Assembly: GCA_964612055.1 (NCBI GenBank)
Contig: CAZTBI010000004.1
Span: forward strand, 1 to 58,844
DNA: 58,844 bases
Origin: an uncultured Bdellovibrionales bacterium
GTDB lineage: Bacteria > Patescibacteriota > Minisyncoccia > Moranbacterales > UBA1568
Direction of reading: 5' to 3'
How positions within the stretch are numbered: the stretch's first letter is position 1; the number at the start of each line of letters is the position of its first letter. Under the pieces are notes generated by a model that was not told where the DNA came from, made no database searches, and worked only from the letters and a program-made list of their open reading frames with translations. Below are positions 53,949-58,844 of the stretch, piece after piece. The position numbers were made by a program, and so were the translations under genes.

Positions 53949-55541
53949 TTACATTTTTTCCGGAGCACTGATCCCCATGAGCGAAAGCGCCTCCGCAAGC
54001 ACTACCTTCGTAGCCCGAACCAACTGTAACCGCGCCTGGGTCAACGGAATATTTTCCGTATCAATCACTCGACACGCATCATAGAACGAATGGAGCTTGT
54101 CGGAAAGCTTCATGGCATACTGCGGGAGCTTGTGGACAGAAAATTCACTGGCCACCGTATCGATCAACTCGGGGAAAAACATCAGCTCACGCATGAGAGC
54201 TCGTTCTTTCTCGTGCGTCAGAAGTGTGAGGTCGCCTGTCGTTACCGTCATTCCCTCTTCCTCTGCTTTGCGCAAGACACTACACAAACGAGCATGAGCA
54301 TACTGGACATAAAAGACCGGATTTTTCTGCGAGCGCTCTTCCGCTAACCCAAGATCAAAGTTCATGTGTGTTTCAGGCGCATACATGAGGAAAAAGAAAC
54401 GTGCCACGTCATGCCCCACTGTTTCGATCAGCTTATCAATCTCGATGACATTGCCAGCACGCTTGCTCATACGCACCTCCACACCGTCCTTTACGACCTT
54501 TACCATTTGCACGATCAAAAAGCGGACATCACCAGAAAATCCCAACATCTGCGCCGCTGCCTTGAAGCGGTTGATATAGCCATGATGATCAGCGCCCCAG
54601 GTCTCGATGATACGGAGAGAACCGCGCTCCATCTTGTTCAGAATATATCCGCAATCCGAAGCAAAATACGTGAGCGTTCCATCCTGCTTAACAAGCACTC
54701 GATCCTTATCATCGCCATACTCAGTCGTCTTGAGCCACAACGCCCCTTCCGATTCATAGGTCGGGCCTTTTTCTTTCAACAGATTGATGGCTTTTTCACG
54801 ATAGCCTTTTTCCACAATCTCCTTCCGTTCAGAAGTCCACACATCAAAATGAATCTGCATCTTTTCTTCAACAGATTTCTTGATCATCTCTTCGAGTACA
54901 TACTCCGCCGACGCTCGGCCCACTGCCTCGACTCCGCCGATGCCAGCAAATTTCTCAGCCAGTTCATCGATATATTCCCCTCCATACACCGCTTCCTCAT
55001 CCTTCAGAACACTATGACCCAGTTTCAAGACTTGCTCCCCGGCATCATTCACATAGTACTCGTCTACGACCTCATAGCCTACCTTTCGTAAAACATTAGC
55101 CAAAGAATCGGCATAGAACCCACCACGACCATTTGCAACCGTAAGCGGCCCTGTCGGGTTGGCAGAGATGAATTCATTGTTTATCTTAATCCCCTGACCT
55201 GCAACACTCGATCCGTACAATTTTCCCTCCTTCAAAACTTTCTCCAAAACAGAGGCGATGTCTTTCTGGCTCAGAAAGAAATTAATATGGCCAGGCCGCA
55301 CTACTTCGACTTTCTCAAAGGTATCGGAAAGAAGTTTTAATCGGAGGAGCTCGGCTAGTTCCATTGGATTCTGCTTCACTTCTTTAGCAATAACCAAAGC
55401 AATATTGGTGGTATATTCCCCAAATTGTTCATCTTTGGGCCGCTCCACAGTCACTTGGGGTACCAAAAAATCAGGCAACTTTCGTTCCTGTTGGAGTATC
55501 TGTAAAGCTTCTTCAATTTTCTTCTGCAGCATTTGCTTCAT
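53949..55541 (-). CDS. argS: Arginine-tRNA ligase
   Basis: FGEYTTNIA, EFISANPTGP, WGADHHGY, MSKRAG, YVQYAHAR. Start trimmed to MKQMLQ. Confidence 0.97.
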   Translation of the reverse strand: MKQMLQKKIEEALQILQQERKLPDFLVPQVTVERPKDEQFGEYTTNIALVIAKEVKQNPMELAELLRLKLLSDTFEKVEVVRPGHINFFLSQKDIASVLEKVLKEGKLYGSSVAGQGIKINNEFISANPTGPLTVANGRGGFYADSLANVLRKVGYEVVDEYYVNDAGEQVLKLGHSVLKDEEAVYGGEYIDELAEKFAGIGGVEAVGRASAEYVLEEMIKKSVEEKMQIHFDVWTSERKEIVEKGYREKAINLLKEKGPTYESEGALWLKTTEYGDDKDRVLVKQDGTLTYFASDCGYILNKMERGSLRIIETWGADHHGYINRFKAAAQMLGFSGDVRFLIVQMVKVVKDGVEVRMSKRAGNVIEIDKLIETVGHDVARFFFLMYAPETHMNFDLGLAEERSQKNPVFYVQYAHARLCSVLRKAEEEGMTVTTGDLTLLTHEKERALMRELMFFPELIDTVASEFSVHKLPQYAMKLSDKLHSFYDACRVIDTENIPLTQARLQLVRATKVVLAEALSLMGISAPEKM

Positions 55542-55603
55542 GCTCTGTATCGTACCGGAAAAAAGCCAGAAAGGAAAGATTCGAGCGTTATAATTATAAA
55601 AAG

Positions 55604-55639
55604 AAAAACTGCCGGCACCCTCTTTGGGGTACGCGGCAG
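55604..55639 (-). repeat. 36-nt terminator-like repeat, copy 1
   Basis: Plus strand AAAAACTGCCGGCACCCTCTTTGGGGTACGCGGCAG; 33/36 identical to copies 2 and 3. Confidence 0.9.
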
Positions 55640-55656
55640 TGTAGATTCCCTCGAGC

Positions 55657-56325
55657 TCAGCGCCGAAGACAGGCCGGCGACAAGCTCGGCCCCCAAGACG
55701 GCTCTCGATTTGAGCCATACTCGCCACAGTCGATAAGCTCCTGCGTGACTGGCTGATACATAACCCAACGTTGAATGGACCCTTTGTCGCCTTGAAAGGT
55801 AGCTCGTACGATGAACCATCCGTCATGGTATTCGCGAATCTCGCGCACCGCGGCATCATGACCTTCTCCGAGATTCGTTCGAATGTATCGAAGCGATTCA
55901 ATCTCTCGGTCATCGAGAAACACTCTGGAACTACCCGACCAATCCTGTGCAGGCGTGTACTCTGTCACGATGGTGATGATTCCATAAGAGGAACCTCCCC
56001 ACATCAGTGAAACGCCAGGCGTGTAATCACCATTCGGATTGCCATGTACCTTCTGCAAGATTACTCCTCTGAAGGTCACCACTGCATCCCATCTCTTGTT
56101 CAGAGGGTCATAGATGCTCCTCATCTGGACATCCGCAGTTGACGCTTCATCAGGCATGGTATATCCATAGTCGCCCAGAATAACTGGCAATTTATCAAAG
56201 GCCATTTTGACCTCTTCGGCCGTTGAAAGTGGCACGGAATTTTCATCCCCGCCGCCGCAGGCAGCGAGGAGGCTGAGGCACAGCATCGTCAGGGCGATAC
56301 GGAAAGCAGAATAAATCGTGGTCAT
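55657..56325 (-). CDS. Orphan lipoprotein
   Basis: CAAGGAG SD; signal peptide with lipobox LAA-C followed by GGG. Confidence 0.7.
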   Translation of the reverse strand: MTTIYSAFRIALTMLCLSLLAACGGGDENSVPLSTAEEVKMAFDKLPVILGDYGYTMPDEASTADVQMRSIYDPLNKRWDAVVTFRGVILQKVHGNPNGDYTPGVSLMWGGSSYGIITIVTEYTPAQDWSGSSRVFLDDREIESLRYIRTNLGEGHDAAVREIREYHDGWFIVRATFQGDKGSIQRWVMYQPVTQELIDCGEYGSNREPSWGPSLSPACLRR

Positions 56326-56418
56326 GGTGTCTCTCCTTGAGACTTGTTGAAGAACCGGGGTTTCTGTCTCCCCTACAGGAGAAGATTCTCCCCGTAAAGT
56401 GACTTTCTTTTATACAAT

Positions 56419-56445
56419 AAAACCGAACTTTTGTAAAGAGTTCGG
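56419..56445 (-). terminator. Terminator after trhO
   Basis: CCGAACT-N9-AGTTCGG followed by TTTT. Confidence 0.65.
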
Positions 56446-56455
56446 CTGAAATAAT

Positions 56456-57496
56456 TTATGCGGCTATTTTTTCTTTGAAGGCCTCTTGGTTTTTCGGAAG
56501 TACTTTGCCTTTGCGACGTTTGATTTGCTCGGCTAGAGGAAGTGCCACGATAGCCTGACACTGCGCACCACAACAGCCAGAAAATTTTTCTTTACAAGAA
56601 GCACACTGAATAAAAAGAAGATTGCACTCGACATTAGCGCAGTTCGTATAGTCATCGCACATACTGTCACACTGGTGACACTTCGCGAGAACATCGTCCG
56701 TGATCCGTTCACCTAGACGCTCATCGAAGACAAAGTTCTTACCTTTGAATTTTGATGGTAATCCCTCACGTTCAATCTGATGTTTATAGTCAATGATGCC
56801 GCCATGAAGCTGATAGACATTCTTGAAGCCCTGATGCTTCAGATAAGCACTAGCTTTTTCGCAACGAATACCGCCCGTACAATAGAGGAGCACGGGCTTG
56901 TCTTCTTTCCCTTTCAGCTCTTCTTTCACCATTGGGAGTTCTTCGCGGAAAGTATAAGCATTCAATGCCACAGCGTTTTCAAAACGCCCGATCATTGATT
57001 CGTAGTTGTTGCGCATATCCACTACGACTGCTTCTGGTTGTTCCAACATTTCATTAAATTCCCGGGCGGTGAGATGAGTACCGACATTCGTCACATCATA
57101 ATCTTCAGGTGTCAAACCATCCGCCACGATCTGTTTCTTGACCTTGATCGTCAGCTTCCAAAAGGCTTCGTTGTTTTGTTCTACTCCTACTTTAAACGGT
57201 ACATCGGTAAATTCTTTACGCTTATAGAGAAGTTCTTGAAATTTTTCAAAATGTGGTTCTGGGACACTCATCTGAGCATTGATCCCTTCTTTGGCCACAT
57301 AGATTCTTCCCAAGACTCCAAGTTTCTGCCACTCGGTGAAGAGTTCATTACGTAAAGCTACTGGGTCAGCAATAATGACATAGCGATAGAAAGAAATCAC
57401 CCGCCGTGAAAACGACTCGGTAGCTACACGCTTCTGAGCCTCTTCTTTGGAGATATGATTTCGCAGTTGGTGCGGGATATTGATCATACGATTCAT
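56456..57496 (-). CDS. trhO: Rhodanese-domain tRNA U34 hydroxylase (YceA/UPF0176)
   Basis: SFYRY, GRIYVAKEGINAQ, DMRN.YE..IGRF, YCTGGIRCEKAS, GKNFVFDER. Confidence 0.92.
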   Translation of the reverse strand: MNRMINIPHQLRNHISKEEAQKRVATESFSRRVISFYRYVIIADPVALRNELFTEWQKLGVLGRIYVAKEGINAQMSVPEPHFEKFQELLYKRKEFTDVPFKVGVEQNNEAFWKLTIKVKKQIVADGLTPEDYDVTNVGTHLTAREFNEMLEQPEAVVVDMRNNYESMIGRFENAVALNAYTFREELPMVKEELKGKEDKPVLLYCTGGIRCEKASAYLKHQGFKNVYQLHGGIIDYKHQIEREGLPSKFKGKNFVFDERLGERITDDVLAKCHQCDSMCDDYTNCANVECNLLFIQCASCKEKFSGCCGAQCQAIVALPLAEQIKRRKGKVLPKNQEAFKEKIAA

Positions 57497-57534
57497 CCTA
57501 TCGGAAACCTGCTAAAAAGTGAAGTGGAGATAAA

Positions 57535-57570
57535 AAAAACTGCCGGTGCCCTCTTTGGGGTACTCGGCAG
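57535..57570 (-). repeat. 36-nt terminator-like repeat, copy 2
   Basis: AAAAACTGCCGGTGCCCTCTTTGGGGTACTCGGCAG. Confidence 0.9.
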
Positions 57571-57578
57571 CGATCGCG

Positions 57579-57830
57579 TTATCCGCCATTACGGACAATG
57601 CTCAGAGCCATGATGTATCGTTCCAGATCGGGAGGTGTCAGCGGACGCTTCTCCTTGGTCGACATGTTGGTGAGAATCCACCGGCGTTTCTGGGCTTCCC
57701 AGGTCACCCGATAGATGGGGGCCGGCGGGCTCTGCAGCGCATCCTCCGCGAAAGCCAAAGCGATGTAACGGATCTTGGCTCGCAGATCGTCCGTATCCGG
57801 AATACTCTCTCTCAGCTTCTTCAGTTCCAT
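57579..57830 (-). CDS. Orphan protein (83 aa)
   Basis: CAAGGAG SD, own promoter, ends 8 nt before repeat copy 2. Confidence 0.65.
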   Translation of the reverse strand: MELKKLRESIPDTDDLRAKIRYIALAFAEDALQSPPAPIYRVTWEAQKRRWILTNMSTKEKRPLTPPDLERYIMALSIVRNGG

Positions 57831-57880
57831 CTCATCACTCCTTGGGAAACAACCTGAAAACCGAAAAATTCATCTGGCCA

Positions 57881-57908
57881 ATCCTATCATCTCTATCCGA
57901 AAAATCAA
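57881..57908 (-). promoter_or_regulatory. sigma70 promoter of the 83-aa ORF
   Basis: TTGATT-N16-TAGGAT with TGn. Confidence 0.5.
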
Positions 57909-57934
57909 GTCAGCGCTCTGCAGGTTACGGAAAT

Positions 57935-57970
57935 AAAAACTGCCGGTGCCCTCTTTGGGGTACTCGGCAG
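57935..57970 (-). repeat. 36-nt terminator-like repeat, copy 3
   Basis: Identical to copy 2, exactly 400 bp away. Confidence 0.9.
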
Positions 57971-57993: not shown

Positions 57994-58140
57994 TCAGCCG
58001 CCGGAGATGGACATGATGGCGTCCCGGAGGAACCAGACCAGGGTCACGGCGATGCCACCGTTGACGAACTTGTCCCAACCGTCGGCCTCCATGATGATGA
58101 GGGTGGCATTGCGGTAGGTACGAAACTTCTGAGCAGGCAC
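57994..58140 (-). CDS. Orphan micro-protein (48 aa, GTG start)
   Basis: CAAGGAG-N6-GTG; MPAQKFRTYRNATLIIMEADGWDKFVNGGIAVTLVWFLRDAIMSISGG; C-ending codons. Confidence 0.65.
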   Translation of the reverse strand: MPAQKFRTYRNATLIIMEADGWDKFVNGGIAVTLVWFLRDAIMSISGG

Positions 58141-58183: not shown

Positions 58184-58212
58184 ATTATACTCCTTTTTCG
58201 ACCAGAAGTCAA
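58184..58212 (-). promoter_or_regulatory. sigma70 promoter of the 48-aa ORF
   Basis: TTGACT-N17-TATAAT. Confidence 0.8.
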
Positions 58213-58272: not shown

Positions 58273-58719
58273 ATGACCAATATCGCCACCAACAAACGAG
58301 CCGGTTTTGATTACTCCCTCGAAGGACGCTTTGAGGCTGGTTTGGTATTGACCGGCGCCGAAGTAAAATCGGTCAAAACTGGCCACGCGAGCCTGAAAGG
58401 CGCTTACGTCACAGTCCATGGAAATGAGCTTTATCTGACGAATGCTTTGATCCCCCGCTACGCCCAGGCTCACCGTGATACGAAACATGAAGATAGCAGG
58501 CCACGAAAGCTTCTTTTACGCAAACGAGAAATCGGCTCTCTCATCGGAAAATATCGTACAGAAGGCTTGACATTAGTCCCGATTCGGTTGTATACTAAGA
58601 AGCAACTTGTGAAGCTTGAGTTTGCTATTGGGAAAGGAAAGAAGGAATACGATCGCCGAACCGATATCGGGAAACGTGAAGCCAAGCGTCGCATCGATCG
58701 CGCCATGCGTGCTCACTAA
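58273..58719 (+). CDS. smpB: SsrA-binding protein
   Basis: IATNKRAGFDY, FEAGLVLTG.EVKS, RKLLLRKREI, GKGKKEYDRR. Confidence 0.97.
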   Translation: MTNIATNKRAGFDYSLEGRFEAGLVLTGAEVKSVKTGHASLKGAYVTVHGNELYLTNALIPRYAQAHRDTKHEDSRPRKLLLRKREIGSLIGKYRTEGLTLVPIRLYTKKQLVKLEFAIGKGKKEYDRRTDIGKREAKRRIDRAMRAH

Positions 58720-58793: not shown

Positions 58794-58844
58794 GGGGTTG
58801 TTTAGACTCGACAGGTTGTACTTTCAAAATACGCAAGCCGACCT
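58794..58844 (+). ncRNA. ssrA: tmRNA 5' end (truncated by window edge)
   Basis: GGGGTTGTTTAGACTCGACAGG fits the tmRNA 5' consensus and lies directly after smpB. Confidence 0.75.

Follow-up and report, generated by a model that had tools for sequence, protein, structure and literature searches.

An intrinsic-terminator-like hairpin retained and reused behind unrelated genes in one hypervariable chromosomal slot of Candidatus Moraniibacteriota

The PeSL (promoter-early stem-loop) of T4-type phages is a short repeated regulatory motif, with an efficient stem-loop terminator, that lies between ORFans in the hyperplastic regions of these genomes (Arbiol et al., 2010, PMC2839356; Comeau et al., 2014, PMC4122927); recombination between neighboring motifs, with mini-circles and without a dedicated recombinase, is its proposed engine (PMC2839356). 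In the minimal mobile elements of Neisseria, as summarized in a later paper, differing genes occupy one slot between conserved flanks (Saunders and Snyder, 2002, cited in PMC1538595), as they do in replacement flexible genomic islands (Lopez-Perez et al., 2014, PMC4033161). Judged by analogy, PeSL-mediated modular shuffling appears to be the closest described mechanism to the locus presented here, and the Neisseria elements (as far as that summary describes them) together with the replacement islands appear to be the closest cellular concepts. The locus is a slot of variable genes between smpB and argS in a stretch of 58,844 nt (contig CAZTBI010000004.1, positions 1–58,844; hereafter the window), where the same bulged hairpin, with the features of a transcription terminator, recurs behind three mutually unrelated genes. 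The window is part of a genome (G000) of Candidatus Moraniibacteriota, 0.94 Mb in size and 99.8% complete, within the candidate phyla radiation (CPR, or Patescibacteria). CPR bacteria have tiny genomes with numerous orphan genes that are specific to a lineage and frequently encode surface proteins, and to our knowledge they carry almost no classical mobile elements. We interpret the hairpin, with moderate confidence, as the reused terminator module of one hypervariable slot, which passively serves general recombination without a dedicated recombinase.

A degenerate 31-mer describing the hairpin (CTGCCGMGTACCCCAAAGAGGGYRCCGGCAG) has exactly three matches in the window, all on the minus strand (55609–55639, 57540–57570, and 57940–57970), and is absent from 100 dinucleotide-preserving shuffles of the window. 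Following the direction of transcription, copy 3 (57931–57970, minus strand; hairpin 57970–57940; T-run TTTTTATTT at 57939–57931; −20.0 kcal/mol, z −4.0) ends a 48-aa open reading frame (ORF; 57994–58140) after a stop-to-hairpin spacer of 23 nt; copy 2 (57532–57570, minus strand; hairpin 57570–57540; T-run TTTTTTTT at 57539–57532; −18.6 kcal/mol) ends an 83-aa ORF (57579–57830) after 8 nt; and copy 1 (55598–55639, minus strand; hairpin 55639–55609; T-run TTTTTCTTTTT at 55608–55598; −23.8 kcal/mol, z −4.8; 74.5 bits) ends the gene of a 222-aa lipoprotein (55657–56325) after 17 nt, upstream of argS. The original prediction of a 36-nt bulged hairpin at these three distances from three stop codons is thereby borne out, as is its statement that copies 2 and 3 are identical and bound a 400-bp unit: the identity spans 37 nt, and the two starts lie 400 bp apart. 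Copy 1 differs from copies 2 and 3 at three positions, namely the bulge base and a CA>TG change in the 3′ arm that turns an A·C mismatch into an A-U pair and a U-A pair into U·G. No similarity between the units was found in the copy flanks beyond the ~40-nt repeat. The three genes had been called unrelated orphans; they are indeed mutually unrelated, but the lipoprotein, 48-aa, and 83-aa ORFs all have homologs in relatives.

Folded as RNA, each copy is a 6+6-bp stem that bears a single unpaired base and is capped by a 6-nt loop, with energies between −18.6 and −23.8 kcal/mol. A GC-rich stem of 12–13 bp, 5–11 T directly behind it, and a position 8–23 nt past the stop codon on the coding strand are the features of a classical Rho-independent (intrinsic) terminator, as which we class the hairpin from its sequence, its termination activity being predicted; the hairpins of relatives are likewise placed shortly downstream of stop codons. 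No T-run follows the stem on the opposite strand, so the element is unidirectional. A simple terminator scan overlooked all three copies because of the bulge. When 20 distinct copies were aligned independently with MAFFT, 95.8% of cells were in standard pairs, and compensatory double changes occurred in four of the 12 pairs, a level reached by none of 500 shuffles; the hairpin structure appears to be under selection, and the element appears to be old. In diverged members, the outer CTGCCG/CGGCAG stem persists together with the T-run, with loops of CAAG, TAAA, CAAT, or 10 nt (range 4–10 nt); the bulge base varies in identity, the bulge itself is lost in some (e.g., L066 and G070), and the whole inner stem is replaced in terminator T2 of L064 and L080. 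Since loop, bulge, and inner stem all vary in these members, selection would be acting on structure and not on a core site.

Within G000, searches with the pattern (three mismatches allowed) and with short-word BLAST returned only the three window copies, all within 2.4 kb. One genome from each of 185,579 species, G000 itself excluded, was scanned for exact matches to the degenerate motif, which turned up in only five genomes, all of the same genus; pattern scans of IMG/VR and of JGI metagenome contigs, from whose results near-identical records may be missing, yielded none. A covariance model trained on 11 copies (cut-off E ≤ 1e-4) detected the hairpin in 10 further genomes of the genus and in five that belong to two more genera of the same family. 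The proposal to follow the 36-mer across the genome and its relatives thus had a divided outcome, with three local copies only in G000 and, in at least 13 other genomes of two genera, related copies that with one exception lie in the same slot. Every examined copy but one lies in the arrangement smpB (divergent), variable genes, trhO, variable genes, argS, from which trhO is missing in some genomes; the sole off-slot copy stands behind a lipoprotein paralog on another contig of G084 (C81). Copies number 1–5 per genome, nearly all at this one locus. None of the examined copies follows a housekeeping gene, and the supposition that the hairpin always follows variable genes therefore holds among them. 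At least six unrelated protein families stand before it: a loose lipoprotein superfamily, a secreted "EVRCG" family, a 324/327-aa pair, and 372-aa, 177-aa, 83/93-aa, and 48/51-aa proteins.

Read from smpB to argS in the direction of transcription, the slot of G000 comprises the 48-aa gene and hairpin, the 83-aa gene and hairpin, trhO with its own terminator, and the 222-aa lipoprotein gene and hairpin, followed by argS. The first two units recur in L077, L078, and L063 (~94.7% nucleotide identity), the last of which lacks the lipoprotein unit; the 48-aa gene, hairpin, and 83-aa gene were recovered together in four independent assemblies. L064 (75–85% nucleotide identity) has a homolog of the 48-aa gene before T2, then trhO, a 217-aa lipoprotein with hairpin, and argS; L079 and L080 have a 51-aa gene before T2′, then trhO and argS; and L066 has a 97-aa gene before T1, a 212-aa lipoprotein before T2, and argS. 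In G084, genes for 115/172 aa and 372 aa, each with hairpin, precede trhO, a 185-aa lipoprotein with a decayed hairpin, and argS, and in G081 a 183-aa gene with hairpin and a 177-aa gene whose hairpin lacks the T-run precede trhO and argS. A 163-aa gene with hairpin precedes trhO in G099; G097 has a 162-aa gene with another terminator, the 327+324-aa genes with hairpin, and trhO; and G098 and G104 have a 392/396-aa lipoprotein with hairpin, 324+318/324-aa genes with hairpin, a 93-aa or 67-aa gene with hairpin, and trhO. G092 carries a 196-aa lipoprotein with hairpin before argS, G065 two lipoproteins (205 and 269 aa), each with hairpin, before argS, and G056, of another genus, a 217-aa gene, trhO, a 165-aa lipoprotein with hairpin, and argS. 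Copy 2 of the window is the positional ortholog of the terminator that directly precedes trhO in G084, G097, G098, and G099.

Where the cargo differs between relatives, the break points can be compared with the hairpins. In L064, L079, and L080, the 48/51-aa gene and trhO are separated by one terminator only, whose left flank is that of copy 3 and whose right flank is that of copy 2; the indel that comprises the 83-aa unit is therefore delimited by the two terminator copies. The trhO-proximal hairpin of G097 is orthologous to that of G098 and G104, including ~15 nt upstream (GCCGTCAA..CTGA), with a different gene in front: the 324-aa gene of G097 is fused ~10 nt before its stop to end codons (…AVN, then stop) that correspond to the ends of unrelated ORFs of 67 aa (G104; …AVKN, then stop) and 93 aa (G098; …AFKN, then stop) and are followed by the orthologous hairpin. 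This fusion lies inside an ORF end, hence the junction is upstream of the hairpin. In L063, 12 nt (2145–2156) replace an 878-nt block (window 55582–56459), so that the trhO terminator, the lipoprotein unit, and hairpin copy 1 are gone, trhO abuts argS, and the TrhO C-terminus reads KIAAAH vs. KIAA before the stop; since no hairpin is left at the junction, this was an ordinary deletion. Both of these resolved indels thus have break points outside the hairpin. In G081 and G056, 17–50 nt of an older lipoprotein 3′ end are left between the present ORF and the hairpin, a configuration in which the terminator was retained while the gene before it changed.

Likeness among copies differs by lineage. 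The CA variant common to copies 2 and 3 occurs only in the lineage of G000, L063, L077, and copy 3 of L078. T1 and T2 of L066 have a heavily derived sequence in common, with one difference, plus ~25 similar nt upstream, and in G098 and G104 orthologous copies are more alike than the copies within one genome; homogenization or recent duplication is thus apparent in some lineages only. Between G000 and L063, trhO (window 56460–57500) diverges as a mosaic of 0–15 differences per 100 nt, with stretches of 0–1 beside stretches of 10–15, the mark that homologous recombination among strains leaves behind. G000 encodes RecA and ComEC, which together with the mosaic trhO indicate that general homologous recombination is available and apparently active.

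The mechanism that we propose for the slot runs as follows. Each variable gene would be a self-contained unit made up of a σ70-type promoter, an AAGGAG ribosome-binding site, an ORF rich in G+C at third codon positions (GC3), and the hairpin terminator. Read-through into the following unit, or into trhO and argS with their seemingly leaderless mRNAs, would be blocked by the terminator, which selection would maintain because it insulates trhO and argS from the strong promoters upstream. The ORFs turn over by replacement, truncation, deletion, or addition, and the terminator outlives them, in many cases along with some nucleotides from the 3′ end of the former gene, so that the same hairpin comes to stand behind unrelated genes. 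The copies, as direct repeats of 37–46 nt, would be passive substrates of general recombination, and recombination between copies would explain why the copies of one genome can be identical or co-evolve and how whole units are gained or lost between them.

The original prediction, that the hairpin is a cassette-end or recombination site that also terminates, survives in this mechanism only in part: the terminator, the self-contained units, the restriction to variable genes, and the 83-aa indel inside two copies agree with it, whereas the lone Xer-type recombinase, the variable loop and stem, the indels located elsewhere, and the like doublets formed by unrelated terminators speak against a dedicated site, as does the restriction of G000 to three copies, all of them local, a result that the prediction itself had named as counting against it. 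Its phrase of integron-like logic, in the sense of co-oriented units with a common 3′ hairpin and a head promoter, fairly describes the layout.

Several points weigh against the reading of a reused terminator module. It does not account for the first duplication of the terminator around an unrelated unit. The single terminator of L064 and L080 has a different inner stem, and simple hairpin-by-hairpin deletion would need an extra step. Over all genomes, the mean number of differences is 5.3 between copies within a genome vs. 5.5 between copies at the same position across genomes, and genus-wide concerted evolution was rejected as unsupported on this average. In G056, of a different genus whose ArgRS is only ~62% identical, the canonical sequence has hardly changed, down to the loop CAAAGA; such conservation exceeds pairing needs and could indicate a sequence-specific partner or horizontal spread. 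Finally, all sequences compared are metagenome-assembled genomes or metagenome contigs.

Terminator repeats are not peculiar to this slot. In a self-comparison of G000, most short local same-strand repeats were terminators, and near-identical doublets lie one gene apart at C1:148145/148749, C1:470703/471701, C3:1445/2205, C2:184768/185650, and C2:144619/145603, each locus with its own hairpin sequence. In the doublets that were checked, the repeat begins at the hairpin base, the enclosed unit consists of promoter, AAGGAG site, and ORF, and the ORFs before the two copies are unrelated or distantly related, with GC3 of 0.57–0.75. The terminator of the C1:148 locus is conserved in G060 and G071 before the same downstream gene; a DNA search for this locus in the genus found only the downstream glycosyltransferase gene and its terminator. 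Because distinct hairpins form the same doublets, a site of one sequence cannot explain the pattern, while sequence-independent recombination between any conserved terminator copies can. A more far-reaching idea is that Moranbacteria, perhaps CPR generally, run a recombinase-free chromosomal cassette system in which terminators serve as portable homology, promoter-ORF-terminator units loop out between two copies as mini-circles, and Campbell-style re-insertion at any matching terminator duplicates it. Such a system, the cellular equivalent of PeSL shuffling in phages, would account for the doublets of terminators that surround GC3-rich orphan genes at six or more G000 loci, and we put it forward tentatively, as a speculation that is possible but has the odds against it.

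Other repeats were also seen in G000. A further near-identical short direct repeat lies one gene apart at C2:170801/172061; together with the five doublets it makes a set in which most members are terminator hairpins with their T-run and bracket GC3-rich units of promoter, Shine-Dalgarno sequence, and unrelated ORF. At least two families of dispersed repeats, 120–145 nt long and 75–100% identical, are present, one set with examples at C1:474626, C1:352020, C1:470564, C1:393809, C1:86097, C3:49190, C3:28861, and C5:22868 and the other at C1:131315, C1:474447, C1:122039, C5:23048, C3:58573, and C2:209886; a nature as miniature inverted-repeat transposable elements (MITEs) or small RNAs is conjectural. 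Some of them adjoin the lipoprotein doublet at C1:470–474 kb.

A rival explanation, in which the hairpin has no part in gene turnover, takes it for a plain terminator, its copies derived from old local duplications of a lipoprotein gene with its terminator, and ascribes the coincidence of break points to chance or alignment ambiguity. That the commonest owners of the hairpin form one lipoprotein superfamily, including the tandem paralogs of G065 and the off-locus paralog of G084, is what this explanation would predict, and it is at ease with the two indels resolved without hairpin use and with the lack of an average within-genome similarity excess. Copies 2 and 3, however, are identical down to a lineage-specific variant and flank ORFs dissimilar in both DNA and protein; the two terminators of L066 have their heavily derived sequence in common; the indel of the 83-aa unit maps to two copies; and doublets with unrelated ORFs exist at no fewer than five other loci. 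On balance we consider it unlikely.

Less probable still, and in our view doubtful, is an extra sequence-specific role in RNA, by which the hairpin would act as a 3′-end stabilizer or as a site for an RNA-binding protein that tunes accessory genes; this role, in place of recombination, would account for its conservation. Many members have other loops or inner stems at the same positions, Rfam gave no match for the hairpin, and no candidate binding protein is known, against which stand the loop and stem of the canonical subfamily, conserved beyond pairing needs, and the association of the hairpin with one expression style (own promoter, AAGGAG Shine-Dalgarno sequence, GC3-rich ORF).

The inventory of recombinases bears on the remaining possibilities. 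G000 has one tyrosine recombinase, of Xer type, which is encoded on another contig than the window, at ~19.0–19.6 kb of C2, and scores 238–250 bits with the XerD, XerC, and XerA models and 122.8 with the integron-integrase model TIGR02249, for which the cut-off is 265. Neither a serine recombinase nor a Y1 (HUH)/RAYT transposase (PF01797) nor an integron integrase was found in this genome, and readings of the hairpin as a REP/RAYT element, an integron site, or a serine-recombinase site were rejected on these grounds. A co-occurring recombinase, for which a search had been proposed, was consequently not located beyond the distant Xer-type protein with its score far below the integron-integrase cut-off. 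The absence of attC-type RYYYAAC/GTTRRRY ends, noted from the outset, is confirmed, the hairpin ends being CTGCCG/CGGCAG. A dedicated cassette recombination site that also terminates, served by the lone Xer-type enzyme in the manner of Xer-exploiting integrative mobile elements (IMEX) or pdif sites or by some other protein, is very improbable, for although its 13-6-12 inverted-arm layout resembles tyrosine-recombinase core sites, direct repeats flank the 400-bp unit, the units are co-oriented beside a conserved outward promoter as in an integron, the canonical sequence and loop are conserved across genera, and one Xer-type recombinase is present, that recombinase lies on another contig and is joined in G000 by no detected integron integrase, serine recombinase, or Y1 transposase, loops of 4–10 nt and replaceable inner arms occur in family members, RYYYAAC/GTTRRRY ends are lacking, the 1–5 copies per genome are almost confined to a single locus, two indels bypass the hairpin, unrelated terminators form the same doublets, and every unit has its own promoter.

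The genes of the slot differ in expression style from their conserved neighbors. An AAGGAG Shine-Dalgarno sequence lies 7–8 nt before the start in all three hairpin-ended genes (58152–58147 for the 48-aa ORF, 57843–57838 for the 83-aa ORF, and 56338–56333 for the lipoprotein gene), and their GC3 is 0.84, 0.68, and 0.56, respectively, vs. a genome mean of 0.505 ± 0.076; GC3 is lower in trhO and argS. The minus-strand 48-aa ORF, with a GTG start, encodes a small hydrophobic protein and is conserved near smpB in relatives as a 48–51-aa gene, with a longer homolog in L064. As first variable gene it has a strong predicted σ70-type promoter (58184–58212, minus strand; TTGACT, 17-nt spacer, TATAAT), and the smpB-side intergenic region with this outward promoter is conserved genus-wide up to the −10 box and variable beyond. 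The 83-aa ORF (minus strand) encodes a lineage-restricted small protein (pN/pS 0.49) with one homolog at 88% and a probable 93-aa homolog in G098; its putative promoter (57881–57908, minus strand; TTGATT, 16-nt spacer, TAGGAT), recognized by direct reading, is conserved in L063, L077, and L078. The 222-aa lipoprotein (minus strand; lipobox LLAAC/GGG) belongs to a fast-evolving lipoprotein family resident at the locus in many relatives.

Conserved genes frame these units. smpB (58273–58719, plus strand) is the divergent flank, and argS (53949–55541, minus strand) is the flank at the opposite end of the slot. The core gene trhO (56456–57496, minus strand) encodes a member of the rhodanese-type tRNA hydroxylase family, with UPF0176/Rhodanese domains assigned by Pfam to an ortholog. 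Its listed start at 57496 overlaps a −10-like box and is probably not used; the ATG at 57487 is the likely true start, and the mRNA would then be leaderless. This box (TAGGAT, 57500–57495; window 57481–57523) ends ~7 nt before that ATG, and a TACGAT −10-like box likewise ends ~7 nt before the argS ATG at 55541 (window 55524–55565), in both cases without a Shine-Dalgarno sequence, so both genes look leaderless. The terminator of trhO (56416–56445, minus strand; CCGAAC...GTTCGG followed by TTTTATT) is unrelated to the hairpin and ~97% conserved in L064. The promoters that follow the hairpins have a TAGGAT −10 box in common and are otherwise unalignable, the repeat in the window consisting of hairpin and T-run only.

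Pfam and PADLOC returned no family for any slot cassette protein, Rfam and ARAGORN found nothing over the region, and exact look-ups of the SmpB and TrhO of the window matched no record. A tmRNA-like 5′ end (GGGGTTGTTTAGACTCGACAGG...) begins at 58794, 75 nt past smpB, and runs off the contig end, which is why ARAGORN did not call it; the same sequence follows smpB in G084 (L014). Contig C2 ends (~226.3–227.5 kb) with the genes for L20, L35, and IF3, the same ones that precede smpB in L064 and L079, hence C2 and the window's contig (C4, end 58844) are probably joined across the tmRNA gene. The 48-aa unit was ruled out as a tmRNA or small RNA gene, the tmRNA-like start being on the other side of smpB, and the low divergence of the 48-aa ORF was set aside as an unspecific sign of structured RNA, divergence from L063 being patchy everywhere, including trhO. 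The 48-aa and 83-aa ORFs were also considered, and rejected, as decayed pieces of a lipoprotein gene: in tblastx they shared with other loci only the hairpin and the smpB-proximal promoter region.

Some further observations concern the cargo and its surroundings. Between G000 (56206–56460) and L064 (5850–6120), the segment with the trhO terminator and the promoter, 5′ untranslated region, and signal-peptide region of the lipoprotein gene is ~97% identical, while trhO is ~81% identical and the lipoprotein body is unalignable as DNA (43% amino acid identity). The lipoprotein gene is, on this comparison, apparently a hypervariable ORF within a highly conserved expression frame. Differences in the lipoprotein are not confined to a C-terminal repeat; a diversity-generating retroelement was considered as the cause of the hypervariability, and no search for a reverse transcriptase gene was made. 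A two-gene cassette (~324 + 327 aa) is common to G097, G098, and G104 (L015 5796–7713, L016 3571–5476, and L017 5475–7383); its downstream gene is far more diverged (48–71% at the amino acid level) than the partner (69–94%), and the 324-aa protein has a sub-threshold AGOG/HhH-glycosylase match and none in PADLOC. A small MITE-like element with inverted repeats (ACCCCGTTAGAGA...TCTCTAACGGGGT and close variants) occurs between terminator and trhO promoter in L079 (6235–6310) and L080 (709–785) and upstream of argS in L066 (2195–2275), inserted at TTCAC/TTTTT.

The locus offers a well-resolved comparative series of ~25 versions of one slot across two genera, in which the expression frame of outward promoter and terminator is kept while the cargo is swapped, truncated, or added, sometimes with breaks in the terminator repeats. 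If it is true that terminators anchor recombination, reduced genomes would thereby have a simple, enzyme-free way to acquire genes. For annotation, near-identical terminators after unrelated genes in these organisms should not be called attC-like or REP-like.

The differences from these repeat classes are specific. Repetitive extragenic palindromes and their mosaics (REP/BIME, with RAYT) are likewise extragenic GC-rich imperfect palindromes of ~35 nt at gene 3′ ends, but here three copies lie at one locus, carry a T-run, and are accompanied by no Y1/RAYT gene found in the genome. Xer/dif-type sites (IMEX, pdif) differ in that the central length of the hairpin is not fixed (loop 4–10 nt) and its inner arms are replaceable. 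Integron attC sites, including the VCR-like repeats of sedentary chromosomal integrons and CALIN arrays, come nearer in appearance, with an imperfect hairpin bearing an unpaired base behind co-oriented, unrelated small genes, near-identical copies, and a head promoter; here, however, there is no IntI, there are no R/L boxes, GTTRRRY, or conserved extrahelical bases, the hairpin has 31 nt vs. 57–141 nt (half the minimal attC length), and a T-run, a terminator, own promoters, and break points often outside the hairpin are present.

With the Neisseria minimal mobile elements, as far as the cited summary describes them, and with replacement islands, the slot has in common that different genes occupy the same conserved flanks without mobility genes and that proteins exposed at the surface, represented in the slot by lipoproteins and secreted proteins, are enriched among the cargo. 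Exchange in those systems is ascribed, in the same accounts, to transformation and homologous recombination in the conserved flanks, for which RecA, ComEC, and the mosaic trhO are the counterparts here. The slot differs from what is described of them in being subdivided by a retained terminator repeat as single genes turn over, and in having units of single, GC3-rich genes with their own promoters. The PeSL is matched in having a terminator motif between small ORFan genes, no dedicated recombinase, and a presumed means of preventing spill-over into downstream conserved genes; indels or replacements at the motif are matched by the 83-aa unit, and not by the lipoprotein deletion of L063 or the G097/G104 junction. 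In contrast to the PeSL, which is phage-borne with ~50 copies per genome, the hairpin resides on a cellular CPR chromosome in 1–5 copies at one locus, and only the terminator half is repeated, with the promoters that follow lying outside the repeat.

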